A stretch of 64,000 bases of DNA from an uncultured Nitrososphaerota archaeon. GTDB taxonomy: Archaea; Thermoproteota; Nitrososphaeria; Nitrososphaerales; Gagatemarchaeaceae. A model generated the notes under the pieces. The model was given only the letters and a program-made list of their open reading frames with translations, was not told the origin of the DNA and did no database searches. The DNA lies in the NCBI GenBank assembly GCA_963703285.1, contig OY969807.1, positions 1,248,001 through 1,312,000 on the forward strand, read 5' to 3'. This document shows positions 3,912 to 55,721 of this stretch, one piece after another. A program made the translations under genes and the position numbers. How positions within the stretch are numbered: position 1 is the stretch's first letter; every line of letters starts with the position of its first letter.

Positions 3912-6326
3912 TTAGAAAGACTTGGACATGGCGGCAAACAGATGTTCAGTATCACGCTTGGACTTTATGAAATTCTTGAAGTCCCTTTCGACCTGATTGA
4001 TCACCTTCTCATCGACCAGAGGTATCTTTATGTTCTGAATCAGGGTCGAACTCAGGTGGGCGACGGTTGCCGTTTGCGTCTTGTCGCTGAACAACTGCTT
4101 TTGCCCAATCTTCGAGATTAGAACAAAGAATACGTAAGCAGGGGAAATCTTGTTCTTGTCAACACGTATGATTGCGACTCTCTGATTTACGGCGATGTCG
4201 GTTGTTTCACTATCAATATAGGCCGCCCTGAACTCTTTGTTCCCGTCCATACCGAGAAGGATATCATCCTCTTCCAGTTTAATTGTGCGACAAGTTCTGT
4301 AGTAATCGGTGGGGATCGTCTCCAAATCCCCTTTCGATAGCAAGGAGTTGTTGAGATGAGCAATCTTCGTAAGAGGCTGTTCACCCTTCCCGAAGTACTT
4401 GCTCTGGAATGCATATCCCGCCATTACCTTTCCGTTCTTCAGGTATTGCTTCAGTTCCTTGAACTGTCCATTCGGAAGAGATACACGCCTCGATCGATAT
4501 TGAGGATCAAGGCGTTCAAAGACTGGAACGCTGGATAGCTTTACCCATTTTGATGAATTGAACGTTCTTTTCTCTTTGAAGGCTTTGAGTATCTCGGGAA
4601 ACTCGTTGCCGTCTTCCTTGATCATGTGCCTCTTGAACTTGTAACCAATCTGATCTGCCGTCCCGAAGAAACATTCGTCATCTTCTTGCTCCACTCCCTT
4701 CCTGCAAAAGAGTATTGTTGTCTTTGTTGCCCCGCCTCCACTGTAGGGTTTGAATGCCTCATCGCTAAGTTTCACTACGGCAAGAACTTTGGCATTCTCA
4801 CGGATGAACTGTCTTATGCATCCCTCTGATGAATTGGAAAAGAGGCCGTCGTGAAGGATTATCCCCAAGAAGCCCCCATCCCTTAGCAGCTTCAGGCATC
4901 TCTCAAGGAATAGAACCCCGTTGTCCTGACCGTCTAACAGCTCCCCACTTTTCTCGAATCGTTGAGTCAGATGATTGAAAAAGTATCTATGTCCTGTGTC
5001 GAATGCCGCCAAAATTGTCTTGTCTTGGACTTGAACGACGGACTTCGAGCCAAAGGGAGGATTCGTCAGGGCAATGTCGAATGAACCTTCCTTAATATGA
5101 TCGTTAAGGAGGGTCAGGCCGTTTCCTTTGAAGATCGCAGTATGGCCATCACCGTTCATCGACATGCTGAGTTTTGCAAGGGAGGCGACACTGCCATCCT
5201 TCTCAATTCCAAACACTTGATTGGTCTGAAGCTGAGTTATCTTTTCCTTGTATTCTGGTGAGTCAGCGAGGAAGCTATCCTTGACTTTGGATGCAAGCCT
5301 GATGAAACTTTTCTCTATGAAGCCGCCAGTCCCGCAGGCAGGGTCGATGATCCTGTCCTTGAGTCGGGGGTCTGCCATGTCCACCATGAAATTGACTATG
5401 TTCCTGTGGGTGAAGAACTGACCCATCTCTCGACCCTTGAGCGTGTTGTTCAGGAACGAATCGAATGCTGAACCCTTTCTCTCAATTGGAATCGAGTCGA
5501 GAGTGTATTTGTAAAGAGATTCGACTATCTCGTTCAGGGTCTTAATGGATAGGTTCCTGCTGATTGTCTTCTCCTCGGGCTGGAGAAGATCGGTGTCAAC
5601 GTATTGGAGGCATTCGGAAAGATACTGATAGATGTCGTCTTCAATCTTCTTTCTCTTCGTCTCTGATGTCGTGTCCTTGTACTGGTTGTAATACTCCGAG
5701 ATTGTCCTTAAGTTGTAAAGACTTCGCCCCCGCTCCTCGTTGGTCTTGATTAGGATTAGCTTGACCAGTATGTGAAGGGCTTCGGCGGGTTTGACGGCAT
5801 CTTCGGCATACATGCGGTTGTGGGCATAGATGAACCACTTCTCGACATCGTCAGAACTTGGTAGCTTCTTGACATACGCCTCCTTGCCTATCAGGATTTG
5901 CCTGAACCTATCGACGTTAGCGAAGACGTTCTTGAGGTCTAACTCAAACCAGAACTTGTCCGATTCATAGAGTCGGTTGCTATATCCGCTCGTTAGGAAT
6001 AGGTATCGAGTGTTGACATCTGGGCTAACGCAGTAGGACATTCCTTGATTGTAGTCGTCTGGGATCGTAAGACCGACTTTGGGTGACTTGGCCTCTATAA
6101 TGAGGGTCGGAAGCACGTCATCTTTCGCCATGATGTCCGTCTGAAGAGTTTCGTAGCTCTTGCTTCCAGCCTTGACACGAACTGAGACTTTGCTGAAGAT
6201 GTTCTTCTCCCTGTATCCTAACTCCTTCAGGATAGGGAAAACGACGCTCTTCTCGACTTGTCCCTCTGAAGGGTTGATTTCGAGTGCATCGCGGGCATCG
6301 TTGAACTTGGATGGCTCCGCCATCAT
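3912..6326 (-). CDS. Fused restriction endonuclease / N6-adenine methyltransferase / single TRD (Type IIG-like, HsdR_N-HsdM-half HsdS)
   Basis: N-terminal D...EAK nuclease motif (TDIMAKDD..IIEAKSP); motif I DPACGTGGF; motif IV TNPPFG; C-terminal HsdS-like TRD (NQRVAIIRV...YVFFVL...IKIPL). Confidence 0.85.
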   Translation of the reverse strand: MMAEPSKFNDARDALEINPSEGQVEKSVVFPILKELGYREKNIFSKVSVRVKAGSKSYETLQTDIMAKDDVLPTLIIEAKSPKVGLTIPDDYNQGMSYCVSPDVNTRYLFLTSGYSNRLYESDKFWFELDLKNVFANVDRFRQILIGKEAYVKKLPSSDDVEKWFIYAHNRMYAEDAVKPAEALHILVKLILIKTNEERGRSLYNLRTISEYYNQYKDTTSETKRKKIEDDIYQYLSECLQYVDTDLLQPEEKTISRNLSIKTLNEIVESLYKYTLDSIPIERKGSAFDSFLNNTLKGREMGQFFTHRNIVNFMVDMADPRLKDRIIDPACGTGGFIEKSFIRLASKVKDSFLADSPEYKEKITQLQTNQVFGIEKDGSVASLAKLSMSMNGDGHTAIFKGNGLTLLNDHIKEGSFDIALTNPPFGSKSVVQVQDKTILAAFDTGHRYFFNHLTQRFEKSGELLDGQDNGVLFLERCLKLLRDGGFLGIILHDGLFSNSSEGCIRQFIRENAKVLAVVKLSDEAFKPYSGGGATKTTILFCRKGVEQEDDECFFGTADQIGYKFKRHMIKEDGNEFPEILKAFKEKRTFNSSKWVKLSSVPVFERLDPQYRSRRVSLPNGQFKELKQYLKNGKVMAGYAFQSKYFGKGEQPLTKIAHLNNSLLSKGDLETIPTDYYRTCRTIKLEEDDILLGMDGNKEFRAAYIDSETTDIAVNQRVAIIRVDKNKISPAYVFFVLISKIGQKQLFSDKTQTATVAHLSSTLIQNIKIPLVDEKVINQVERDFKNFIKSKRDTEHLFAAMSKSF

Positions 6327-6502
6327 TCCTTACCTCCAGACTCTGCATTGTCGAGCAGTTGATTGATCACGTCATCAAAAGACACCTTTGAAGTCCGCTT
6401 CTCTCCAATCACCTTTGCCTTGAACGCGTCTAATCGTGAGAAGGTCTCAGACTTGAGCATGACAGAATGCTGCTTTTGCTTCCCCTTCCGATTGCCTTCC
6501 AA
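6323..6502 (-). CDS. Small ribbon-helix-helix-like protein (59 aa, not in ORF track)
   Basis: TTG start; MEGNRKGKQKQHSVMLKSETFSRLDAFKAKVIGEKRTSKVSFDDVINQLLDNAESGGKE; its TGA overlaps the RM gene ATG (ATGA); SFDDVI..LL is typical of archaeal RHH proteins. Confidence 0.7.
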   Translation of the reverse strand: MEGNRKGKQKQHSVMLKSETFSRLDAFKAKVIGEKRTSKVSFDDVINQLLDNAESGGKE

Positions 6503-6630
6503 ATGAACATCATTGGTATGTTTGTTTCAGTTAATATGTCTGCTATAGATGATTTGGCAGACGTGTCAAAATGAGCTAACCCTCTCGGTACAAAGACACT
6601 ATCACACATAACGGATATATCTGGTATAAA

Positions 6631-6816
6631 TTATATTTTCTGTGTGTTTAGTTCGGCCTTCACTTCAATTCGCTTCCCCTTGATCGCAAAAGTGATGCGT
6701 GAGGGATTTCCGAGTACGTCCATCACTGGCTTAGGGATTGAACTGGAATACCCTCGGCTCTCAACATGATTGACGCCGACCGTGAACTCGGTTGCGTCCT
6801 TTTTCCACTTCGGCAC
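6631..6816 (-). CDS. AbrB/MazE/SpoVT-like small DNA-binding protein
   Basis: SSSIPKPVMDVLG..ITFAIKGKRIEV swapped-hairpin pattern; divergent from the transposase. Confidence 0.7.
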   Translation of the reverse strand: MPKWKKDATEFTVGVNHVESRGYSSSIPKPVMDVLGNPSRITFAIKGKRIEVKAELNTQKI

Positions 6817-6831
6817 GGAGCAAGGTTAGAT

Positions 6832-6910
6832 TATCTACGTATATAATGCTATTCGTAATCCCTAACTATCTACGTAGATACCGATATCCTAATATATCTA
6901 CGTAGATATA
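6832..6910. promoter_or_regulatory. Three palindromic operator-like sites TATCTACGTAGATA
   Basis: 6832-6845 (1 mismatch), 6867-6880 (perfect 14 bp) and 6893-6910 (perfect 18 bp) lie between the divergent AbrB-like and transposase genes. Confidence 0.8.
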
Positions 6911-6933
6911 CCTAAGGACATGCAACGAGCAAC

Positions 6934-8154
6934 TTGGACGAAAGTGAAACGAATCCAGAAATGCCGACGAATGAGGGGTTGGTAAAGATGAACCCCTCCC
7001 CGCTTTTTGTTTCAAGAGAGGTCAGGGGCGAGCAAATCGCCCGACAGTTCGGATGGGTGAAGCGCGTGGACGAGTCCCAATATCTCGTCCACTCCCAGAG
7101 CAGGGACTTCGAGTATTCCGTTCTCAGCACTGAGTTCGGTTGGGTCTGCTCATGCCCAGATGCGATGTACAGGGGGGCGAAGTGTAAGCACATTCACGCC
7201 GTAGAGCTGAGTTTCATCCTCAGAAAGATTGTTGCAAGACAGGCGGTTGCGATCCAGCCCGTCAACGTTCAGGGTTGCCCAAAATGTTCCTGTCTCGACA
7301 TCAAGAAGGGCGGCCTCAGGCACAACAAGGCAGGGGACTTGCAGAAGTTCAGGTGTAAGGAATGTGGCTACTGGTTCACGATTAACCTCGGATTCGAGAA
7401 GGTTCAGGCGACCCCCCAAGCCATCACAGGGGCGATGCAACTCTACTTCTCAGGTGAGAGCCTTAGGAGCGTCCAGAAGTTCCTTAGACTTCAGGGGGTC
7501 AACGTCTCCCATGTCTGCGTTTACAAGTGGATTGGGAAGTATGTTAAGTTGATGGGCGGGTATCTCGACCAGATTCAGCCTCAAGTGGGTGACAAATGGA
7601 GGACGGATGAGCTGTATCTGAAGGTAAAGGGCGACATGAAGTACCTCTTCGCGATGATCGACGATGAGACCCGCTTCTGGATTGCCCAGCAAATCGCAGA
7701 CCACAAGGGAACGAGCGACGTAAGGCCGATGTTCAAGGAGGCGATGAAGGTCGCGGGAAAGAAACCCGAGGTCTTGATTAGCGACGGAGCACCCAACTTC
7801 CACCGAGCATACAACAAGGAGTTCTGGACGCACTTCAACCCGAGGCCGACGCACGTTAAGGAAATCGCGCTCCGAGGTCGGATTCATAACAACAAGATGG
7901 AGCGTTTCAACGGGGAACTCAGAGACCGAGAGAAGGTCATGCGGAGCCTCAAGACGAGCGAGACCCCGATACTCCAAGGGATGCAAATCTTCCACAACTA
8001 TCTGAGGCCACACATGGGCCTTGAGGGAAAGACGCCCGCCGAGGCCGCTGGAATCTCAATCGAGGGAGAGAACAAGTGGCTGACAATCATCCAGAACGCC
8101 CAGATGACGAGAGTTAACACCGAGAAGAATCTGGAGTCGATGACGAAGAGTTAA
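6934..8154 (+). CDS. IS6-family DDE transposase with N-terminal SWIM and Zn-ribbon domains
   Basis: SWIM CSCPD..CKH; CPKC..CKEC ribbon; HTH; DELY / SDG / ERFN catalytic triad; stop codon lies within the right TIR. Confidence 0.88.
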   Translation: MDESETNPEMPTNEGLVKMNPSPLFVSREVRGEQIARQFGWVKRVDESQYLVHSQSRDFEYSVLSTEFGWVCSCPDAMYRGAKCKHIHAVELSFILRKIVARQAVAIQPVNVQGCPKCSCLDIKKGGLRHNKAGDLQKFRCKECGYWFTINLGFEKVQATPQAITGAMQLYFSGESLRSVQKFLRLQGVNVSHVCVYKWIGKYVKLMGGYLDQIQPQVGDKWRTDELYLKVKGDMKYLFAMIDDETRFWIAQQIADHKGTSDVRPMFKEAMKVAGKKPEVLISDGAPNFHRAYNKEFWTHFNPRPTHVKEIALRGRIHNNKMERFNGELRDREKVMRSLKTSETPILQGMQIFHNYLRPHMGLEGKTPAEAAGISIEGENKWLTIIQNAQMTRVNTEKNLESMTKS

Positions 8155-17972: not shown

Positions 17973-18887
17973 TCAGCGAACGTAGGAGAGCCAGGACTTG
18001 TAGCCGTCTATCCTTCCGTGGATGGCGTCCAGGTAGAGTCTCTGGATCCTCTTGGTCACCGGGTACTCGCCGCCCCCCACCTTCCTCCCGTCGACCTCGC
18101 GGATGGGCGTGACGTTCGCGGCGGTCCCGCTGAAGAAGAGCTCGTCGGCCGTGTAGAGCTCGTCCCTCGTGAAGTCTCTCTCGTACGCCTCGATGCCGTT
18201 GTCCCTTGCTATCTGGAGGACCGACATCCGTGTTATGCCGCCGAGGATGCCCGACTGCATCGTGGGCGTGTACAGGACCCCGTTCTTCACCCTGAAGATG
18301 TTCTCCCCCGACCCCTCCGCCACGTTGCCGCCGAGCGTGAGGATGATGGCCTCCTCGTAGCCGGCCGCGAGGGCGTCCATCTTCGCCAGTATCGAGTTGG
18401 CGTAGTTTGCTGAGCACTTCGCCTGCGGCGGGAGGATGCGGGCATCAATCCTGGCCCAGGCAGAGACGCCGCATCGGATGCCCTTCTCCATTCCCTCGTC
18501 GCCGAGGTAGGCGCCCCACTCCCAGCAGGCTACCGCCCCTATCACCTTGTTCTTCAACGGGTTGACGCCCAGCTCGCCGAAGGAGCTGAAGACGATGGGC
18601 CTGACGTAGCAGGCCTGGAGACCGTTCTCCTTCACGACTTCCATGCACGCAGCCGTGAGCTGCTCCTTCGTGTACGGCAGCGCCATCCTGTAAACCCTGG
18701 CGCCGTCGAAGAGCCTATCCATGTGCTCCCTCAGACGGAAGATGGCCGGTCCGTCGGGGGTGTCGTTGCACCGTATGCCCTCGAATATGGAGTACCCGTA
18801 GTGCAACGCGTGGGTCAGGACGTGCACCTTGGCGTCGTCCCAGGGGACGAGCCTACCGTCGAACCAGATGAACTTCGTCGGCTGCAA
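17973..18887 (-). CDS. ilvE: Branched-chain amino acid aminotransferase
   Basis: IWFDG, HALHYG..FEGIR, AEGSGENIF, GITR; probable TTG start LQPTKFIW. Confidence 0.93.
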   Translation of the reverse strand: MQPTKFIWFDGRLVPWDDAKVHVLTHALHYGYSIFEGIRCNDTPDGPAIFRLREHMDRLFDGARVYRMALPYTKEQLTAACMEVVKENGLQACYVRPIVFSSFGELGVNPLKNKVIGAVACWEWGAYLGDEGMEKGIRCGVSAWARIDARILPPQAKCSANYANSILAKMDALAAGYEEAIILTLGGNVAEGSGENIFRVKNGVLYTPTMQSGILGGITRMSVLQIARDNGIEAYERDFTRDELYTADELFFSGTAANVTPIREVDGRKVGGGEYPVTKRIQRLYLDAIHGRIDGYKSWLSYVR

Positions 18888-18931
18888 CTCTTGTCGCCCG
18901 GTTCTCGTCCCGAGGCCTATTTTACGTATCG

Positions 18932-19957
18932 CTAGGCCGCCAGCTGCCCGGCGACCGCGGCTCCGACCTCGGACGTGCTGCTTGTCCCCCCGAGGTCCTG
19001 GGTCGTCACGCCGCCCTCCAGCGTCCGGTCGACCGCCCTCCGGACCGCCGCCGCGGCGTCGCCACAGCTTGCGTCGCCACGTTCCTCCGCCAGCCACTCG
19101 AGCATCATCGAGCAGGTCAGGATGATCGCGACGGGGTTGGCCAGGCCCCTGCCGGCGATGTCGGGCGCGGCCCCGTGGACCGGCTCGAATATCGCGTCCT
19201 TCTCTCCAAGGTTCGCCGAAGGCGCCACCCCGAGCCCGCCCACGAGCTGGGCCGCCTCGTCCGAGAGTATGTCCCCGTACATGTTGGTGGTGACGATCAC
19301 GTCGAAGGACTCGGGCGTCCTGATGAGGTTCATTGCCGTCGAGTCGACGAGCATGTCGCTGAAGGAGACGGACGGATGTCCCGACGCGACCTCCCTGCAC
19401 GCCTGCAAGAAGAGGCCGTCGGTCTTCTTCAGCACGTTGGACTTGTGGACCGCGACCACCTTCCTCTGGCGGTTCCTCCGCTCGGCGATCTCGAACGCGC
19501 GCTCGGCTATCCTGGCCGAGGCCTTCCGGGTGATGGTCCTAAGCGCGACCGCTCCTCCCTCGAACTCGAACTCCATCCCGCGGTAGAGGCACTCGGTGTT
19601 CTCCCTCACCATGACGAAGTCGATGTCCGGCCTGAGCGACGGGACGTGCGGGAGGCTCACCGACGGCCTGATGTTGGCGTAGAGGTCCAGCGTCTGTCTG
19701 AGCTTCACGATGGTCTCGGCCGCCGTCTCTCCCACCGGGCCCTTGAGGCAGGCGTCCGAGTCCCTGATGGTCGTGACCGTCGCGGCGGGGAGCGCTTCGC
19801 CTGTCCTCGACTTGCACGCGTCCCCTGCGGGCGCGGGCCGGAACTCGAACCTCAGGTCGAATCGGGGTCTCAGCGCCTCTAGGACCGCGACGGCTGCCGA
19901 CGAGACCTCCGGACCCACCCCGTCCCCCTCTATCTGGGCGATGTTGTAGGTCGTCAT
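18932..19957 (-). CDS. leuB: 3-isopropylmalate dehydrogenase
   Basis: GDGVGPEV, VRENTE, NMYGDILSD, FEPVHGAAPDIAG; in leu operon. Confidence 0.88.
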   Translation of the reverse strand: MTTYNIAQIEGDGVGPEVSSAAVAVLEALRPRFDLRFEFRPAPAGDACKSRTGEALPAATVTTIRDSDACLKGPVGETAAETIVKLRQTLDLYANIRPSVSLPHVPSLRPDIDFVMVRENTECLYRGMEFEFEGGAVALRTITRKASARIAERAFEIAERRNRQRKVVAVHKSNVLKKTDGLFLQACREVASGHPSVSFSDMLVDSTAMNLIRTPESFDVIVTTNMYGDILSDEAAQLVGGLGVAPSANLGEKDAIFEPVHGAAPDIAGRGLANPVAIILTCSMMLEWLAEERGDASCGDAAAAVRRAVDRTLEGGVTTQDLGGTSSTSEVGAAVAGQLAA

Positions 19958-19976
19958 GCGAAAACCAGCGGGCTCT

Positions 19977-20492
19977 CTACTGGGCCGAAGCCTTCAGCCT
20001 CTGCCTGACCCTCTCCCTGACGTACCCGAGGAAGCCGCCCCTCTTCATCTGCTCGATGTCCGAGTCGCTGGCCGTCACGGGGTATTCCGTCCCCTTGGTG
20101 AGGTCATTCAGGGTGCGTGCGTCGAGGTCGATCAGGAGCTCGTCCCCGGGGTCGATCCGACTCGTGTCGGCAACCTGTATCGGCAGGAGGCCGTTGTTCA
20201 GGGCGTTCCTGTAGAAGATGTCGGGAAACGACTGGGCGACCACCGCGACGACGTTGTTGTACTTCACGGCGTAGACGGCCTGCTCCCTCGAGGATCCGCA
20301 CCCGAAGTTGTTCCCGGCAACGACAATGCTCTCCCTGTTCGCCCTGCACGCCGCCTTGAACGACGGGTCGTAGTACTCGAAGGCGTGGTCTGCGAAGAAC
20401 TGCTTGTCCCAGCTCTCCTGGAGCAGGTACGCAGGTATGATGTAGTCGGTGTTGATGTCGTCGAGGTACTTCTTGGCGACCTTCCCTCGCAT
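19977..20492 (-). CDS. leuD: 3-isopropylmalate dehydratase small subunit
   Basis: DINTDYIIPA, NFGCGSSREQA, SF..IFYRNA.NNGLLP. Confidence 0.9.
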   Translation of the reverse strand: MRGKVAKKYLDDINTDYIIPAYLLQESWDKQFFADHAFEYYDPSFKAACRANRESIVVAGNNFGCGSSREQAVYAVKYNNVVAVVAQSFPDIFYRNALNNGLLPIQVADTSRIDPGDELLIDLDARTLNDLTKGTEYPVTASDSDIEQMKRGGFLGYVRERVRQRLKASAQ

Positions 20493-20499
20493 CTGCAAT

Positions 20500-21816
20500 T
20501 CAATCACCCAGGTACTTCCGCGGGTCGGCAATCCTTCCCTCGACGGCGGTGGTAGCGGCGACGGCGGGCGAGCCGAGATAGATGAAGGCCTCGGGCGAGC
20601 CCATCCTCCCCCTGTAGTTGCGGTTGCTCGTCGAGAGGCACCTGTCCCCGGGCGCGAGTATCCCCATGTGCTTGCCGAAGCAGGGACCGCAGTTGGAGGA
20701 CTCGATGTTCGCCCCGCTCTGCGCGATCGTGTTGAGAATCCCGTTCTCCATCGCCCAGTTGTACACCTTGCGGCTCGCGGGTATCACGATTAGGTTGGTG
20801 TCCGGGTGTACCTTCCTGCCCTTGAGTATCCGGGCGGCCAGGGCGAGGTCACTCTTCCTCGCGTTCGCGCAGGAGCCCAGGAAGACGACGTTGATGGGGT
20901 CGCTCACCTCGCTGACCGGCCTCGCGTTCGCGGGCGAGTGCGGGAGCGAGACGGTCGGCTCGACGGACGCTGCGTCCACGTTCACGGTCCGGGAGAAGGC
21001 CGCGTCCTCGTCGCTCTTCATTATCGTCCCCGACTCGGCGGGTGTGAGGGCCCTCCCCTTGGCCGTGAGGGCGCCGCCGACGTAGTCCATCGTCTTCTGG
21101 TCAGGGTTGACTATAGCGGTCCGGGCCGACATCTCAACAGAGAGGTTGCAGATCGTGAACCGGCCGTCCATCTCCATCGAAGAGATGGTGGGACCTTCGT
21201 ACTCCGCGACCATCTTCGAGCATCCCCCCTCGCCCATGACCCCGAGGACGTGCAGGACGAGGTCCTTGGGATAGACGCCCCGCGGGAGTTCGCCGTCGAC
21301 GTGGAAGCGGACCGACTCGGGGACCCTGAACGAGTAGAGCTCGCCCGTCGCAAGGAGGTTCTCGGCCTCGGTCGTGCCTATGCCGAAGGCCAGCGACCCC
21401 AGCGCGCCCTGGGTGCAGGTGTGGGAGTCGGTCGCCACGGCTATCTCGCCGGGGAGGACGAACCCCTCCTCTGACGCTATCGTGTGCTCGATCCCGTCCC
21501 CCTCCTTGTACATCGCTATCTGTTGCTGCTTTGCGAAGTCGGCCATCAGCTTGATGCCGGCGCTAACCATTATCGAGCACGAGGGGACGGTGTGGTCGGG
21601 CATGAAGGCGACCCTCGCCGGGTCGAAGACCTTCATCCGCCTCCCCGCCTCCTGGTACACGTCGGCGAAGTCCTTCTGGAAGTTGAGGATGGCGGGCGGC
21701 CCGATGACCTCGTTGAAGTAGAGCTTGTCGACAGGCAGGGCCTCGACCAGTTCTCCGGCAGCGACGGGCCTTCCGACGGCCCGGGAGACGATCTTCTCGG
21801 TTATGGTGCGTCCCAT
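20500..21816 (-). CDS. leuC: 3-isopropylmalate dehydratase large subunit
   Basis: MGRTITEKI, DSHTCT.GA, GSCAN, CGPC.G, STSNRNYRGRMG. Confidence 0.92.
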   Translation of the reverse strand: MGRTITEKIVSRAVGRPVAAGELVEALPVDKLYFNEVIGPPAILNFQKDFADVYQEAGRRMKVFDPARVAFMPDHTVPSCSIMVSAGIKLMADFAKQQQIAMYKEGDGIEHTIASEEGFVLPGEIAVATDSHTCTQGALGSLAFGIGTTEAENLLATGELYSFRVPESVRFHVDGELPRGVYPKDLVLHVLGVMGEGGCSKMVAEYEGPTISSMEMDGRFTICNLSVEMSARTAIVNPDQKTMDYVGGALTAKGRALTPAESGTIMKSDEDAAFSRTVNVDAASVEPTVSLPHSPANARPVSEVSDPINVVFLGSCANARKSDLALAARILKGRKVHPDTNLIVIPASRKVYNWAMENGILNTIAQSGANIESSNCGPCFGKHMGILAPGDRCLSTSNRNYRGRMGSPEAFIYLGSPAVAATTAVEGRIADPRKYLGD

Positions 21817-21818
21817 CT

Positions 21819-23381
21819 CTAGAGACCCTCTATTGGCCTGGCGGGGCTCTCCTTCTGGAGCTCCTCCGTCCTCCTGATGCCGTCCTTCTTCGCGAGTAGG
21901 GCGTTCGTCCCGGCGACGACGGCCTCCACGCTCGCGACGACGATGTCCCTCTTCATCCCCCTGCCCGAGGCGGTGTGCCCCTCGCCGTCCTCCACCTCTA
22001 CGGTCACGTCGGCGACGGCGGCCGAGTCCCCCGTCAGGGCTTCGAGCCTGTAGTTCTTCAGGCGGACCGTCTCGATGTTGCTGAATATCTTCTGGATCGC
22101 GTTCACGGCGGCGTCGACCGCACCCGACCCCACCTCGGTGGCCTCGTGGAGATGGCCGCGGACGAGCAGCTTGACGGTGGCGGTTGGGAGCCTCTTTATG
22201 CCGGTCACTACCTCCAGACCTTCGAGCTCGACGAGCTCGTTCTTCTCCGCGCTCCCTCCTCCCATGATTTTGACCGCCATCTGGTAGAGGTCCGAGTCGG
22301 TGACGGTCGAGCCCCCGTCCCCCGTCTCCTTCACCTTGGCCACGATGAGCCTCAGGCTCTCCTCTTTGGGCTTGAGCCCCATCCCGCGCAGCTGCGCGGA
22401 GATGCCGTGGCGGCCCGCGTGCTTCCCGGCCTGCAGCCACCTGGTCCTGCCGACCATGGAGGGGTCGAAAGGCTCGTAGGTCGAGGGGTCGTTCAGCACG
22501 CCGTCCGTGTGTATGCCCGACTCGTGCCCGAAGGCGTTGTCCCCGATTATCGCCTTGTTCGGTTGGATGGGGACGCCGGTCAGCCTGTTGACGAGGCGCG
22601 ACGTCTCGTACAGCAGCTGATAGTTGACGTTCGTGCTCACGCCGTAGAGGTTGCTGCAGGCCATCACGAACTCCTCCAGAGAGGTGTTGCCGGACCTCTC
22701 GCCGATGCCGTTGATCGTCGCGTGCACCTGGTCGGCCCCGGCCATCACGCCCGCGAGGCTGTTCGCGACCGCCAGGCCGTAGTCGTTGTGGCAGTGCATG
22801 CTGATTGTCATGCCGGAGACCGACCTGGCGGCCTCTGTGTACTCCGCCATCCGCTGAGGAGTCGCGATGCCCACAGTGTCGGGGATGTCGAAGCGGTCCG
22901 CGCCCGCGTCCGAGACCGCCTTGACGACCTCCTTGAAGAACCCGATGTCGGTCCTGGTGGCGTCCATCGCCGAGAACTCGACCTTCACCCCGAAGCCCTT
23001 AGCGTACCTCACAGCCTCGGCGGACTGGACCAGCATCTTCTCCCTCGTTATGTGGAGCTGGTGCTGCATGTGGACGTCCGAGGAGGAGAGGAAGACGTGG
23101 ATCCCGCCTACGCCGCAGTCGATGGCCGTCTCGATGTCGACCTTCTCAGCGCGGGCGAGGCCGCAGACCTCTGCCCTGAGGCCGGACCTAGCGATCGCGC
23201 GGACCGCTTCCTGCTCACCCTTCGAGGTTATTGGAAACCCCGCCTCTATGACGTCGACGCCCAGACGATCCAGTGCCAGGGCTATCTCGACCTTCTCCTG
23301 GGGAGTGAGAGAGACGCCGGGCGTCTGCTCGCCGTCCCTGAGTGTCGTGTCAAGGATCCTGACGAGACGCGAGCCGCTCAC
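21819..23381 (-). CDS. leuA: 2-isopropylmalate synthase (LeuA/CimA family)
   Basis: [30 protein letters not shown]-terminal regulatory domain. Confidence 0.88.
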
Positions 23382-23854
23382 GACTGGACCTCCTTGGGTA
23401 GCGCCGCGACGCCCGTCCTCGCTATGTCGAGGACGCTGGTCTGCAGGCTGGAGACGAAGTCGTCGATCTGCTTTGCGCTCCCGACGATCTCGACGACCGC
23501 GGAGCGGGCGGAGGAGTCGACGATGCGGCAGGAGTTCATCTTCTGTAGGTCGGCCAGCGTCATCTTGTCGGTGTTGATTCTCACGAGCGCGAGCTCCCTG
23601 GCCGTCACCTCCTCCGGGGCGTAGGTCCGGGCCTCGAGGACGTCGATCACCTTCATCAGCTGCCTGGCGACGTGCTCCACCGCGGCGTCGTCGCCCTCGA
23701 GCGTCATCGTCATCCGGACGTCGTCGCCCCCGTTGGTCACGCCGACGGTCATCCCGTCGATGTTCAGGCGCATCAGGCGCACGAGGTGGACAACGCGGAA
23801 GAGGGTGCCCGGCTTGTTCTCGACGAGCGTCGAGAGGATCTTCGATGACCTCAA
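23378..23854 (-). CDS. ilvN: Acetolactate synthase small subunit
   Basis: ACT domain LVENKPGTL..NI, QLMKVIDV, RELALV, IARTGVAAL; TTG start overlaps the ilvB stop. Confidence 0.9.
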   Translation of the reverse strand: MRSSKILSTLVENKPGTLFRVVHLVRLMRLNIDGMTVGVTNGGDDVRMTMTLEGDDAAVEHVARQLMKVIDVLEARTYAPEEVTARELALVRINTDKMTLADLQKMNSCRIVDSSARSAVVEIVGSAKQIDDFVSSLQTSVLDIARTGVAALPKEVQS

Positions 23855-25581
23855 AAGATCGACAGCTCCTTTGGGGTGCCGTAGACCGTGTCCTTGATCG
23901 CCTTGCCTGGGGGCATGAACGGGAAGACGTCCTCCTCGTGCGAGACGGGGACCTCTATTAGCGTGGGGGAGTCTGACCTGATGCCTTCCCTCAGCGCCTT
24001 GCCGAACTCCTGGAGCGAGCCGACGCGGGTGCCCTGCACTCCGTAGGAAGCCGCGAGCTTCACGAAGTCGGGGACGTTCTGGAACTTTATCCCGATGAAG
24101 TGCCTGTTGTACATGAGGCGCTGCCACTGCTCGACCATCCCGAGCGACCTGTCGTTCATCACCACGGCCACGACCGGGATATGCTCCTCGACCGCCGTCG
24201 CGAGGGCCTGTTCTGTCATCACGAACGACCCGTCGCCGTCGAAGTCGACGACGGGGACGCCGGGCGCGGCCACCTTGGCGCCGAGCGCAGCGGGGAGCCC
24301 GAAACCCATCGTGCCGAGGCCGGTGGACGTCACCCAGGTCCTCGGCCTCAGTACCCGGTAGTGTATCTCGCACCACATCTGATGCCTGCCGACGCCCGTC
24401 GTGAGGATGGCTTCCGGTGGCAGGATCTCCCTCATCAGCTTGACTATGCGGGGACTGGAGAGCTCGCTGTACGAGTCCTTGTAGGCCGGGATTCCCTTCA
24501 TCTCCTCGCGGACGAGGTCGAGCCTCGTCAGCCACGCGTTGTCCCCCGACCTCTTCACCATGCGCCGGACCAGGGCGTCGAGGAGCATGGTGAGGACGAC
24601 GTTGGCGTCACCGAGGATGCTCAGCGTCACGAGCTTGTTCTTGTTGAACTCGGTCGGGTCGGCGTCGATGTGGATGATCTTGGCGTCGGGCGCGAACTCG
24701 CTGAAGGTGCCCGTGGAGCGGTCGGAGAAGCGCACGCCCACGGCGAGGAGGACGTCGCACTCGCCGACGAGCTTGTTCGCCTCGGCTCTCCCGTGCATCC
24801 CGATGGGTCCCACGGAGAGGGGATGGTCCTCGGGGAAGGTCCCCTTCCCCTGGAGGGTCGTGATCACCGGCGCCATGAGGAACTCGGCTAGGGCCCTGAA
24901 CTGCATGGACGCGTCGGCGATCCTGATGCCTCCCCCGCCGAAGAGGAGGGGCCTCTGCGCCTTCACGAGCATGTCGGCGGCCCTCTCGATGTCCTGGGCG
25001 TCGACGGCGACGCTGGGCCTGTAGCCCCTAATCTGTATCGACTCGGGGAACGTGATCTCGGCCTCCTCCTGCTGGACGTCCTTCGGCACGTCGAGGAGGA
25101 CCGGGCCCGGCCTGCCGGTCTGGGCGATGAAGAAGCTCTTCTTGACGGCCGAGGGTATCTCGGCGGCGGAGAGGGGCTGCAGGGTGTACTTCGTGACCGG
25201 AGTGAGCACCCCGACGACGTCCGTCTCCTGGAACCCGCTCTTGCCCGTCATGCTCTTGGAGACCTGGCCCGTGATGGCGACGACCGGCGATGAGTCGGCG
25301 AACGCGGTCGCTATCCCGGTGACGAGGTTCGTGGCCCCCGGACCCGAGGTCGCCGAGCAGACGCCGGCCCTCCTCGAGACCCTCCCGTAGGCGTCCGCCA
25401 TGTGCGCCCCAATTTGCTCGTGCCTCACGAGCACGTGCTTGATCTTCGAATCCCACAGGGCGTCGTAGAAGGGGAGGTTGGCGCCTCCCGGCATCCCGAA
25501 GATGTACTCTACCTTCTCCTTCTCGAGGGCCTCCACGATGGCCCTTGCGCCGGACATTTTTTCAGGCATTGTAATCGCCAC
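23851..25581 (-). CDS. ilvB: Acetolactate synthase large subunit
   Basis: FGMPGG, RHEQ, TSGPGATN, GMHG, GDGSF ThDP motif. Confidence 0.96.
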   Translation of the reverse strand: MAITMPEKMSGARAIVEALEKEKVEYIFGMPGGANLPFYDALWDSKIKHVLVRHEQIGAHMADAYGRVSRRAGVCSATSGPGATNLVTGIATAFADSSPVVAITGQVSKSMTGKSGFQETDVVGVLTPVTKYTLQPLSAAEIPSAVKKSFFIAQTGRPGPVLLDVPKDVQQEEAEITFPESIQIRGYRPSVAVDAQDIERAADMLVKAQRPLLFGGGGIRIADASMQFRALAEFLMAPVITTLQGKGTFPEDHPLSVGPIGMHGRAEANKLVGECDVLLAVGVRFSDRSTGTFSEFAPDAKIIHIDADPTEFNKNKLVTLSILGDANVVLTMLLDALVRRMVKRSGDNAWLTRLDLVREEMKGIPAYKDSYSELSSPRIVKLMREILPPEAILTTGVGRHQMWCEIHYRVLRPRTWVTSTGLGTMGFGLPAALGAKVAAPGVPVVDFDGDGSFVMTEQALATAVEEHIPVVAVVMNDRSLGMVEQWQRLMYNRHFIGIKFQNVPDFVKLAASYGVQGTRVGSLQEFGKALREGIRSDSPTLIEVPVSHEEDVFPFMPPGKAIKDTVYGTPKELSIF

Positions 25582-25624
25582 TCTCCAATAGAATCTCCTC
25601 GCTTGAAATCTCGAGCGAGGTGCT

Positions 25625-25690
25625 CTAGACTAAAACAATCAACGCTACAAGGACGAGAACCGCCGAAGTAGTAGCGTTGCCGCGCTGCAT
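25625..25690 (-). CDS. Putative ilv/leu leader peptide MQRGNATTSAVLVLVALIVLV (21 aa, not in ORF track)
   Basis: ATG...TAG ORF between the TATA box and ilvB; 10 of the last 11 codons are Val/Leu/Ile. Confidence 0.75.
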   Translation of the reverse strand: MQRGNATTSAVLVLVALIVLV

Positions 25691-25710
25691 TGTGAAGAGG
25701 TAGGGGGGCG

Positions 25711-25720
25711 TTATATTTAA
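25711..25720 (-). promoter_or_regulatory. TATA box of the ilvB leader transcript
   Basis: Minus strand TTAAATATAA, 20 nt upstream of the leader ATG (leaderless spacing). Confidence 0.7.
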
Positions 25721-25794
25721 GATTTGAAAAAGTGGTTTCTAGACCGATTACTAGCGCCGCGACAACCTCTGAGGGAGCCGTTTCCCCGGTCGCG

Positions 25795-26640
25795 CTAGGG
25801 TGGCAGGGGAGGGTCGATGCGGATCTGGAAGACGTCGGGCCAGTCCTTGCCCGTGACGTAGAGGCGGTGGTTGGATGCGTCGTAGGCTATGCCGTTCAGG
25901 ACGTCGTTGGAGTCGCAGTGGCAGCCACTCAGGCTCTGGAGCCCGGCGAGGTCCAACCAGGCGGTGACCTCCCCCGTCGATGCGTTGATGACCGCTATCC
26001 TGTTCGTGAGCCAGACGTTGGCGAAGATGCTCCCGTTGATGTAGTCGAGGCTGTTGAGGTTGTCAATCTGTGTGCTCCCGTCGTGCACGGTGACCTCGCC
26101 CGTCCTCTGGAACGTCTGCGGGTTGAGGAAGTAGAGGGTGTCCGACCCGTCGCTCATGATGAGCTGTGTCCCGTTGTAGGTGAGGCCCCACCCCTGGTCG
26201 GGAAAGGTGAAGTTCCCGAGCGGCTGGAACGTCTCCAGGCTGTAGACGAACCCGATGTGCGTCGTGTATGTGAGCTGGACGATCTCGTCGCCGAAGATCG
26301 CGATGCCCTCCCCGAAGTACTGGCTGGGGAGATTGTGGATCTGGATGACCTGTCCCGTCGTTATGTTCTCCCGGCGGAGCGAGGAGTCCCCATTAAGACC
26401 GGTGCTCTCGTACAGGGTCCCGTTGTAGTAGACCAGGCCCTCCGTGAACGCTCCCGTGTCGTGGGGGTACGTCCCGACGACCTCGTAGGAGTAGACAGGG
26501 GTGGTCGATGTGCTCGTGGTAGGTGGGCCGGAGGAAGCCGGAGCGCTGCGGTCTAGGACGTAGTAGGTCGCCGCGAGCAAGAGGCACGCGAGCACCAAGG
26601 CGAGCGCGACCCTCCAAGTACTTCCCATGGCTGTCCTCAT
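25795..26640 (-). CDS. Glutaminyl-peptide cyclotransferase (bacterial/plant beta-propeller type), N-terminal anchor
   Basis: YPHD..AFTEGL, LYESTG, FGEG, GWGL, SDGS, VLNGIAYD, VTGK.WP; start may be 26628. Confidence 0.9.
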   Translation of the reverse strand: MRTAMGSTWRVALALVLACLLLAATYYVLDRSAPASSGPPTTSTSTTPVYSYEVVGTYPHDTGAFTEGLVYYNGTLYESTGLNGDSSLRRENITTGQVIQIHNLPSQYFGEGIAIFGDEIVQLTYTTHIGFVYSLETFQPLGNFTFPDQGWGLTYNGTQLIMSDGSDTLYFLNPQTFQRTGEVTVHDGSTQIDNLNSLDYINGSIFANVWLTNRIAVINASTGEVTAWLDLAGLQSLSGCHCDSNDVLNGIAYDASNHRLYVTGKDWPDVFQIRIDPPLPP

Positions 26641-41206: not shown

Positions 41207-42874
41207 ATGACTGTTACGGTACGAAACAGGCTGACCGCGGGAGTGGAGAGGGCGCCCCAGAGAGCGATGCTCAGGGCCATCGGACTTTCGGACGAGGACC
41301 TTGAGAAGCCTCTGATCGGGATAGCTAACACCTGGGTCGAGGCGCAGCCCTGCAACTACCATCTGCGCGAGGTCGCCCAGAAGGTGAAGGAGGGCGTCCG
41401 CGACGCTGGCGGGACGCCTCTCGAGTTCAACACAATAGCAGTGAACGACGCCATAGGGATGGGGCACGAGGGGATGAAGGCGTCTCTGGTAAGCAGGGAG
41501 GTCATCGCCGACTCCATCGAGCTCTGCGAGGTGGGATACCAGTTCGACGCGCTCGTGACCATAGGCGGGTGCGACAAGACCCAGCCCGCGTGCGTGATGG
41601 CGATGGCAAGGACGAACGTGCCGAGCATCTACCTCTACGGAGGGTCCATCCCGCCCGGAGAATGGAAGGGCGGGAGGGTCACGATACAGGACGTCTTCGA
41701 GGGCGCCGGAGCGGTCTCGAGGGGGACGATGACCCTCCAGGAGCTGCACGACCTGGAGTGCAACGCGTGCCCGACCTACGGCGCTTGCGGGGGGATGTTC
41801 ACGGCCAACACCATGTCGTCCGCCATCGAGGCGCTGGGGCTGACCGTCCCCAACTGCGCGGCCCCGATAGCCCCGAGCGAGCTCCGCATGCAGAAGGCCT
41901 ATGAGAGCGGCCGTGCGGTGATGAAGATCCTCGAGTCCAACACGAAGCCAAGGGACATACTGACGCAAGAGGCCTTCGAGAACGCGGTGGCGGTGGTCGC
42001 AGGGATGGGGGGCTCGACCAACGCCGTCCTCCACCTGCTGGCGATAGCCTACGAGGCCGGGGTGAAGCTCGACCTCGACGACATCGAGAGGATGGGGTCG
42101 AAGGTCCCCGAGCTGGCCGACCTCAAGCCGGCTGGCAAGTATGTGATGTCGGACGTGGACGTCGTCGGAGGAGTGCCCGTCGTCATGAAGCTACTCCTGG
42201 ACGCTGGGCTGCTCCACGGGGAGGTGAGACTTGTCACCGGAGAGACACTCCGAGAGCGCCTCGAGACGGTCACCTTCCCCGACAACCAGGACGTCGTACA
42301 CAGACTGGAGAACCCGGTCAGGACCAACGGAGGTTTCGCAATACTCAGGGGGAATCTCGCGCCCGAGGGCGCGGTCCTCAAGGTATCGGGAGCTTCCCGG
42401 TTCTCCCACAGAGGGCCTGCCAGGGTCTTCGACAGGGAGGAGGACGCGTTCCACGCCATCATGGAGAAGAAGATCACGGAGGGGGACGTCGTCGTCGTGC
42501 GCTACGAGGGACCCAAGGGCGGGCCCGGGATGAGAGAGATGCTGGCGGTGACAGCTGCGATAGTCGGGCAGGGTTTGAAGGACTCGGTCGCGCTGATAAC
42601 CGACGGCAGGTTCTCCGGCGCGTCCCACGGTATGATGGTTGGGCACGTCTCCCCCGAAGCCGCCGTGGGGGGCCCGATCGCGCTGCTGAAGGACGGGGAC
42701 GTGATTGTCCTGGACGTGGGCAAGAGGTCCCTCTCCGTCGAACTCTCCGACGAGGAGCTGGGGGCCAGGAAGGAAAGGTGGACCCCGCCCGCGCCGCGCT
42801 ACACCCGCGGCGTCTTCGCGAAGTACGCCAAGCTCGTCACCTCCGCCTCGAAGGGCGCGGTCTGCGTGCCCTGA
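41207..42874 (+). CDS. ilvD: Dihydroxy-acid dehydratase
   Basis: [42 protein letters not shown]; start MTVTVR. Confidence 0.96.
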
Positions 42875-55440: not shown

Positions 55441-55721
55441 GAGACGCGTCCCGGCCGACATCGGTAATAAGCGTTGGAAGGTTAAGTCGACGCGAAGTTC
55501 TGACGTCTTTCCCGCTGAAAGCAGGAGAAATTTTCGGAGACCTTCCAAATACTTAAATAGAAAACGCGGAGCGACTATCTCGAGTGATGCGAATGCGAGG
55601 GGATCAACTTCATGGGAGCTGGTTCTGTTCATCATTCGCTATGAAAGTCCGTTAGGCATCACAAGGTTATCGGCGACCGTCTTCGCCCCTTCACCGGTTA
55701 CGCGTATGTCTACTTCGAGAG

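Follow-up and report, generated by a model that had tools for sequence, protein, structure and literature searches.

A candidate branched-chain amino acid leader peptide upstream of the ilvB operon in Gagatemarchaeum and other Nitrososphaeria

Leader-peptide attenuation is a textbook bacterial mechanism that relies on the coupling of transcription and translation, and among the enterobacterial operons for branched-chain amino acids (BCAA) it is represented by ivbL-ilvBN, ilvL-ilvGMEDA and leuL-leuABCD. Here we describe a comparable arrangement in an archaeon, namely a short upstream open reading frame (uORF) that ends in a run of valine, leucine and isoleucine (V/L/I) codons and directly precedes the ilvB-ilvN-leuACDB-ilvE operon. 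The locus lies on the minus strand of a stretch of 64,000 nucleotides (nt), called the window below, from the genome of a Nitrososphaerota archaeon of the genus Candidatus Gagatemarchaeum (2.25 Mb, one contig, about 61% G+C), a placement with which the type of promoter and the archaeal-type leu genes are consistent. A preliminary description of the same DNA had read the locus as a candidate ribosome-mediated attenuator that responds to BCAA through this leader peptide, and the comparison of upstream sequences presented here supports the leader as a candidate of that kind, with a different view of several of its parts.

The resemblance to the enterobacterial leaders is evident in the short ORF before a biosynthetic operon and in the run of cognate V/L/I codons, on which the speed of the ribosome would report tRNA charging. 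Rare codons are a further shared trait, for which the rare CUA codons of leuL offer a parallel. Unlike the enterobacterial leaders, this one has an archaeal TATA promoter and a uORF predicted to be leaderless, its control codons stand at the extreme C-terminus against a hairpin that reaches the stop codon, and it has neither an antiterminator alternative nor a U-tract. Because the archaeal transcription machinery is of the eukaryotic type, the output step cannot match the enterobacterial one. A second point of reference is tnaC of Escherichia coli, where attenuation is Rho-dependent and free tryptophan is sensed via the nascent peptide. Much as in the tnaC/Rho system, a ribosome held at the end of the leader would mask RNA from a termination factor, the archaeal counterpart being aCPSF1/FttA. 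Unlike in tnaC, sensing here would be of tRNA charging, and the factor, whose role at this locus is hypothetical, is a nuclease and not a helicase.

Leaders of the ilvB gene are also described from Actinobacteria (Corynebacterium ilvBNC / ilvB-II, Mycobacterium, Streptomyces), and the leader of Corynebacterium glutamicum is reportedly made without a ribosome-binding site, to go by the title of a report by Morbach et al. from 2000. The actinobacterial leaders share with the archaeal one a V/L/I uORF overlapping a hairpin, although they are bacterial, have poly-U terminators and show no sequence or Rfam relationship to it. According to the excerpts consulted, the V/L/I-rich short ORFs directly overlap the hairpin before ilvB (PMC1262725), the uORF is enriched in BCAA (PMC10272879), and the hairpins are followed by poly-U and are proven terminators (PMC11857589). 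The leaderless poly-cysteine small ORF of mycobacteria (the "ribulon") provides a different parallel, since the stalled ribosome itself is described there, in the excerpt consulted, as blocking an mRNA structure (10.1101/834739). In both cases a leaderless sensory ORF, here a predicted one, is the first cistron of an amino-acid operon. In the mycobacterial case, however, the structure sequesters the ribosome-binding site, whereas in Gagatemarchaeum the Shine-Dalgarno (SD) sequence lies outside the hairpin and its modelled accessibility does not change.

Read on the minus strand, the locus runs from a TATA box through the leader ATG, the V/L/I-ending ORF, the stop-codon hairpin and a GGAG to ilvB and the rest of the operon. 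The leader is contained in a gap of 225 nt between the glutamine cyclotransferase gene (25795-26640) and ilvB, and the TATA box TTAAATATAA (25720-25711) is the sole A/T-rich box within this gap. The uORF opens 20 nt after the box with an ATG at 25690..25688 and encodes MQRGNATTSAVLVLVALIVLV in 21 codons, followed by TAG (25627-25625, the whole ORF being 25690..25625); relatives preserve its frame together with both its start and its stop. Codons 11-21 (25660..25628), which read V L V L V A L I V L V, are taken as the control codons, and 10 of these 11 final codons specify V, L or I. A perfect 9-bp inverted repeat, stem A, joins a 5' arm CAACGCUAC (DNA CAACGCTAC) at 25679-25671 with a 3' arm GUAGCGUUG (DNA GTAGCGTTG) at 25648-25640, within control codons 15-17. 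Hairpin B has the core CCUCGCU/AGCGAGG (25620-25597), and in folding it extends to 25627-25589, where the extended stem pairs the TAG stop. The SD-like GGAG follows at 25586-25583, 13 nt 5' of the ilvB ATG, and relatives have GGTGA or GGAG at that place. The preliminary description had placed all of these elements correctly, including the TATA spacing, the arms of the repeat and the extension of the second hairpin to the stop codon. Its distance of 43 nt from the leader to ilvB is right for an in-frame GTG at 25581 only; all relatives keep the ATG at 25569 as the start (MPEKMSGARA...), 55 nt past the leader stop.

Judged within this genome alone, the uORF argues only moderately against chance. 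Windows of eight residues with at least seven V/L/I occur in 47 of 21,293 short ATG ORFs, and the same run is found in 4 of the 619 short ORFs that have a TATA-like box at the right distance. The weight of the case rests on relatives. The ilvB upstream regions were taken from 40 relatives, from named public contigs and from class-level and phylum-level samples, and each region was scored by the V/L/I count in the last eight codons of its best upstream ORF. An ORF qualified when it started with ATG, GTG or TTG, had at least 9 codons and ended 15-110 nt before ilvB. Before counting, 20 loci (two incomplete ones, the others copies) were dropped, as were regions of less than 250 nt and those containing N within their last 200 nt.

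A conserved BCAA-rich uORF upstream of ilvB was the test set beforehand, and the preliminary expectation of such an ORF in relatives was borne out. Among 86 distinct regions of Nitrososphaeria, 60 reached a score of at least 5 and 43 a score of at least 6, compared with 4 and 0 of the 86 reverse complements and with 4.8% and 0.3% of dinucleotide shuffles (n=1,720); since related genomes are not independent, these contrasts are descriptive and p-values would overstate them, which tells against the reading to some degree. Counted by family, 16 of the 20 in the class include a member with a score of 5 or more, and 14 include one with a score of 6 or more. The corresponding counts in the phylum's other classes are 3/26 and 1/26, and in two of those three families the ORF counted sits inside an upstream coding gene. 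A score of at least 6 was seen in 3 of 48 regions from other archaea (a Marsarchaeota-labelled locus, a Bathyarchaeota-labelled locus and family f44) and in none of 33 regions from Bacteria (Chloroflexota). Within the genus, the uORF was found in 14 of the 15 scored members. Leaders from distant families end in ...VIAASLILVIILLL, ...LVELLLLVVLLD and ...SSSSVALIVLLIVV before the stop or consist entirely of MTYILTQPFLVLVELVL or MSRTTSIAQNIILIVLGLLVVLV, and the distance from leader stop to ilvB ranges over 26-68 nt.

Several families of the phylum's other classes carry a different conserved element 60-110 nt upstream of ilvB (loci L177, L178, L183, L188, L189 and L190; also L168, L180, L174 and L194). 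It consists of a hairpin GAGGGAU..(A/C)CCCUC followed by CAAGU and a stop, and the mini-ORF, which is not BCAA-rich, ends in TLQV or TLQI, as in MKGEYTLQI, MSGGTLQVR and MRDGTLQV. This element may be a separate regulatory RNA or uORF. Five other genomes were examined for a comparable leader at their ilvC genes and leuA paralogues, and none was found; a score-6 ORF 83 nt upstream of ilvC in one genome (G038) was judged to be due to chance.

The composition of the leaders points to the same three amino acids. Over the eight C-terminal residues, the composition of the 64 leaders with a score of 5 or more is L 42%, V 25%, I 9%, A 4.5%, G 1.2% and F 0.4%. The near absence of phenylalanine, whose codons are equally U-rich, argues for selection on the three amino acids that the operon makes and not on a U-tract or on hydrophobicity. 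From family to family the N-terminal parts vary freely, as does the length, which spans 14-92 residues over the leaders scored. The choice of codons is also unusual, and the preliminary claim that the control codons are unlike the G/C-ending host genes proved correct. Seven of the ten V/L/I control codons each account for at most 12% of their synonymous family in 758 long ORFs of this genome (GTT 7.9%, GTA 7.8%, CTT 10.2%, TTG 5.3%, ATT 11.7% and TTA 0.9%). Across 15 genus leaders, A/T-ending or TTR codons make up 82 of 120 V/L/I codons, against 321 of 1,921 in the ilvB genes, and TTA is found in all 15; the genes for tRNA-Leu(UAA) and tRNA-Leu(CAA) are present in single copy each. This bias may arise partly from the A/T-richer intergenic DNA and from the needs of the stem.

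The start of the transcript can be predicted from the promoter geometry of the genome itself. Before ORFs of at least 150 codons, A/T-only 7-mers peak 29-34 nt 5' of the ATG, with 34-49 per position there against 4-17 at 16-28 nt, which is the signature of leaderless mRNAs in this genome. The A/T run of the leader begins 30 nt 5' of the uORF ATG, and a box with at least seven A/T in eight positions stands 28-32 nt upstream of the uORF in 15/15 genus leaders. Because this spacing fits the leaderless geometry, the transcript probably begins at the uORF ATG itself, at 25690. The ilvB gene itself retains an SD-like GGAG or GGTGA, 9-13 nt from its start, as would be needed if it were an internal cistron preceded by a leaderless first ORF.

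Other biosynthetic genes of this genome have the promoter and lack the leader. In the window, ilvC (about 35932, minus strand) and apparently also ilvD (41306-42256, plus strand), as well as, apparently, trpE elsewhere in the same genome (contig C1, about 836535-837296, minus strand), have a TATA box about 30 nt before the start and no uORF, and all three look leaderless. When the genome was scanned for short leaderless ORFs carrying runs of other residues (W, H, C, F, T and further ones), no convincing case emerged, and two V/L/I-rich short ORFs at genome positions 535324 and 2247039 were rejected, as they have no TATA box and no C-terminal run. Within this genome the leader is restricted to the ilvB operon. 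We also observed upstream of hisG (GTG at about 55722) the TATA box CTTAAATAG together with about 170-190 nt of leader that contains small ORFs (window about 55550-55721, plus strand), of which one, MGAGSVHHSL, holds two adjacent His codons; this is too weak for a His leader to be called.

The RNA of the leader was compared with shuffled sequences. As a whole it folds no better than these (z=-0.94; 35 of 200 shuffles as stable), and its strongest element statistically is hairpin B, at -16.1 kcal/mol here (p=0.025 against 200 shuffles). The core of the hairpin is invariant in 8/8 clade-2 leaders. In leaders other than those of the Nitrososphaeraceae type, the hairpin reaches p<=0.05 in 21 of 33 (combined p 7e-12 by shuffles), and in all 33 pairing begins 0-7 nt from the base that opens the stop codon. 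Over the 64 leaders, a stable hairpin abutting the stop was found in 47, against 42% of shuffles, and one of -10 kcal/mol or better in 40, against 22% of shuffles.

A 5' stem recurs in other forms. Seven core pairs of stem A are kept in 8 of 9 clade-1 leaders, and genus members do not differ at the synonymous positions of the stem arms, whereas their adjacent codons vary. The counterpart in clade 2 is a start region AUGCAAC that pairs with GUUGCAU in the control codons (8/8 leaders), and other lineages have different complementary arms, namely GAAGCG/CGCUUC, AGAACAACCAG/CUGGUUGUUCU and AACUAGC/GCUAGUU. As a separate observation, the 5'-most 8-10 nt of the leader, which take in the start codon, have their complement just past the leader stop at loci L029, L053, L056 and L151 (Nitrosocosmicus-labelled and kin) and at L116, L118 and L120, with the pairs GAACUCAA/UUGAGUUC and UGAGCAC/GUGCUCA. 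When the leader is free of ribosomes, such pairing could sequester the 5' end of the transcript.

Taken together, we put the probability that a BCAA-sensing leader peptide regulates the operon in cis at about 0.78, on the strength of these comparisons. In the mechanism that we propose, the operon mRNA would start at the leader ATG, as the promoter geometry suggests, and ribosomes would translate the 21-codon ORF from this leaderless 5' end. A shortage of charged Val-, Leu- or Ile-tRNA would make the ribosome pause on the last 11, mostly rare, codons. A ribosome whose A site stands on any of the final three or four codons would cover about 12-15 nt downstream and with them the 5' arm of the stop-codon hairpin, and it would in this way hold the hairpin open. 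When charged tRNA is ample, the ribosome would terminate and leave, the hairpin and the 5' stem would fold, and expression of the operon would drop.

The output is the weakest step of this chain, and the likeliest one would be premature termination or cleavage by aCPSF1/FttA on the exposed U-rich leader. Since V/L/I codons give U-rich RNA, a stalled ribosome would hide such RNA from the factor. A U4 tract is present in the control codons here and not in every genus leader, and the aCPSF1/FttA orthologue of this genome scores 788 bits against a cut-off of 580. The excerpts consulted describe aCPSF1 as recognising U4 tracts that lie 5' of termination sites, and report that an orthologue from Thaumarchaeota functions in Methanococcus (PMC13675443, PMC8116511). 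We favour termination or cleavage by the archaeal machinery with modest confidence, because the hairpin is not a bacterial terminator and does not hold the SD. For the whole chain including an output of the termination type, the odds appear to be a little under even. A broader proposal, that archaeal ribosome-mediated attenuation is real and dates to the ancestor of Nitrososphaeria, a class that takes in the ammonia oxidisers, or earlier, with the hairpin held open and U-rich RNA masked from aCPSF1/FttA, is offered only tentatively, and we would sooner bet against it than for it.

A number of observations weigh against the attenuator reading. The T content after the hairpin is 0.29 against a background of 0.28 and hence not enriched, 1 of 47 leaders has a T run of at least four after the hairpin, and no terminator-like site turned up in the leaders scanned. 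With neither T enrichment nor terminator-like sites, a bacterial terminator of hairpin plus U-tract is excluded, and the preliminary statement that the leader has no U-tract, and hence no intrinsic terminator of the bacterial type, extends across lineages. Nor was a conserved antiterminator found, and the alignment folds gave no consensus alternative. Stems 1:2 and 3:4 exist, and the pairing of the control region with the 5' arm of the hairpin (2:3) comprises only 4 bp here; no consistent antiterminator pairing was found, and a classical four-segment attenuator is not supported. The leader is not filed as a classical member of the trpL/leuL/ilvL type because the terminator and antiterminator features were looked for and not found.

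Further points on the same side concern individual elements and lineages. Stem A is conserved in the genus and yet not beyond shuffles by itself (p=0.20 here); with p<=0.05 in only 7 of 40 leaders it was rejected as a general significant feature, and the Fisher-combined p=0.007 over 14 lineage representatives is weak, though not nil. The leader is missing from 4 of the 20 families of the class. Leaders of the Nitrososphaeraceae type (24-25 codons) end only in LLL or LVL, and in the shuffle test they have no significant hairpin. In one large A/T-rich family of the order (92 genomes sampled), presumably Nitrosopumilaceae, an invariant TTAAAATTA box separates the leader hairpin from ilvB, whose ATG follows about 23-35 nt later (L116, L118, L120, L121, L123, L125, L127, L130, L131 and L152). 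This box could be a second TATA that gives ilvB its own leaderless transcript, and if it is a second promoter, the leader there would act by read-through or interference. Among the sequencing runs searched, four DNA runs of a single study contain this stretch, and no RNA run does. Finally, replacement of the candidate regulatory codons before ilvB in Streptomyces coelicolor had no effect, according to the excerpt consulted (PMC1262725).

Among the alternatives, the one that survives best keeps the V/L/I sensor and moves its output to a step after transcription, either to loading of the 30S subunit on the stretch immediately 5' of the ilvB SD, which the opened stop-codon hairpin would free, or to protection of the operon mRNA from 5'-to-3' decay by ribosomes stalled close to its 5' end. 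Set against an output by termination, a translational or mRNA-stability output is nearly as likely; as an explanation of the locus in its own right we regard it as possible and somewhat doubtful. The SD lies only 0-13 nt past the hairpin in many lineages, a terminator signal was not found, and the 5' AUG region pairs with downstream leader sequence in several lineages. The closest leaderless precedent, the mycobacterial poly-cysteine ORFs, is described in the excerpt consulted as acting on access to the ribosome-binding site (10.1101/834739). However, the SD of the Gagatemarchaeum leader is outside hairpin B, and its modelled accessibility does not respond to the ribosome. In constrained folding of 15 genus leaders, in which free, stalled and terminating ribosome states were compared, the mean unpaired probability of the SD was 0.42-0.45 in all six states. 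Relief of SD sequestration by a stalled ribosome was rejected for lack of any such change.

A second alternative dispenses with sensing. Archaeal BCAA genes are often under the control of the Lrp family, and a regulator, of the Lrp type for example, might bind here to a DNA palindrome or a structured RNA, with the ORF as a by-product of U-rich or structured sequence whose translation has no part in sensing; this would account for the statistical prominence of the hairpin. We consider this improbable. Only one frame shows the V/L/I enrichment, and Phe has no share in it despite its U-rich codons. The sequence and loop length of the hairpin differ between families while the pairing is retained, which favours an RNA structure over a protein-binding palindrome. 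The sense strand folds more stably than the antisense in 47 cases against 16 of the opposite, and G-U pairs favour the sense RNA. No Rfam family matched at E<=10 in window positions 25300-25900 or at E<=1 in the leaders of eight relatives, with the limit that the inclusion of ilvB-II, ilvB-OMG and the ppGpp riboswitch among the Rfam families was not checked.

A third alternative sees in the ORF the gene of a small hydrophobic peptide that has an independent function, for instance as a membrane micro-protein, and takes the position of the ORF before ilvB as incidental or as a means of co-expression. The hydrophobic C-terminus and the conserved frame, start and stop are what such a peptide would show, and we nevertheless find it very improbable. 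Uninterrupted hydrophobic runs at the C-terminus measure 4 residues in the median and 13 at most, and so fall short of the 18-20 or so that a membrane-spanning helix needs. Since the leader set was chosen by V/L/I content, the comparison with 1,197 transmembrane (TM)-like segments was made on the remaining residues, of which about 30% are hydrophobic in the leaders and about 70% in the segments. F, A, G and M are nearly absent although they are common in the TM-like segments of this genome. The N-termini and lengths are not conserved between families, the synonymous positions of the stem arms are invariant amid varying codons, and the ORF is always tied to ilvB. Two leader peptides were looked up in the protein collection, and neither was present. 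A chance ORF in an intergenic region, for which one might cite the 47 comparable runs in this genome, is effectively refuted by conservation in 16 of 20 families against about 5% in the controls.

The operon downstream of the leader has the content that the preliminary description had given it. The acetolactate synthase large subunit gene ilvB (23851..25569, minus strand) matches TIGR00118 with 682.7 bits (cut-off 538), and it is followed on the same strand by the tightly packed ilvN, leuA, leuC, leuD, LeuB-family dehydrogenase and ilvE genes (17973..23860). All seven were identified by NCBIfam, the LeuB-family dehydrogenase with a score of 402.9 bits, slightly below its cut-off of 409.8, and lpdA and lipB lie downstream of ilvE. 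Plus-strand ORFs at 25402-25671 and 25732-26556 were rejected as genes, neither having a Pfam family.

Two further observations stand apart from the leader. The stretch 4001-8000 of the window has a G+C of 0.486, against 0.58-0.66 in most other 4-kb bins and 0.563 in the first bin, and may be an island or a mobile element. In three genomes of the order (L201, L202 and L204) a conserved motif GTACGAATAT(G/A)(T/C)TTATA overlaps the TATA box upstream of a leuA paralogue that is citramalate or homocitrate synthase-like, and the motif looks like a transcription-factor site.

In the full-text literature searched, with subscription journals and supplements outside its scope, no archaeal amino-acid leader peptide was found, and the word "attenuation" is absent from a review of archaeal coupling and from one of termination. 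The candidate described here spans a whole class, which includes globally abundant ammonia oxidisers with cultured members, and the regulatory use of coupling in archaea is directly testable in them for that reason. For gene callers, the leaders would represent a class of real, unannotated ORFs of 14-30 codons. If the reading is true, the same sensing logic would have been rebuilt on an RNA polymerase that lacks termination by hairpin plus U-tract, and a logic like that of tnaC and Rho would operate on transcription of the eukaryotic type.

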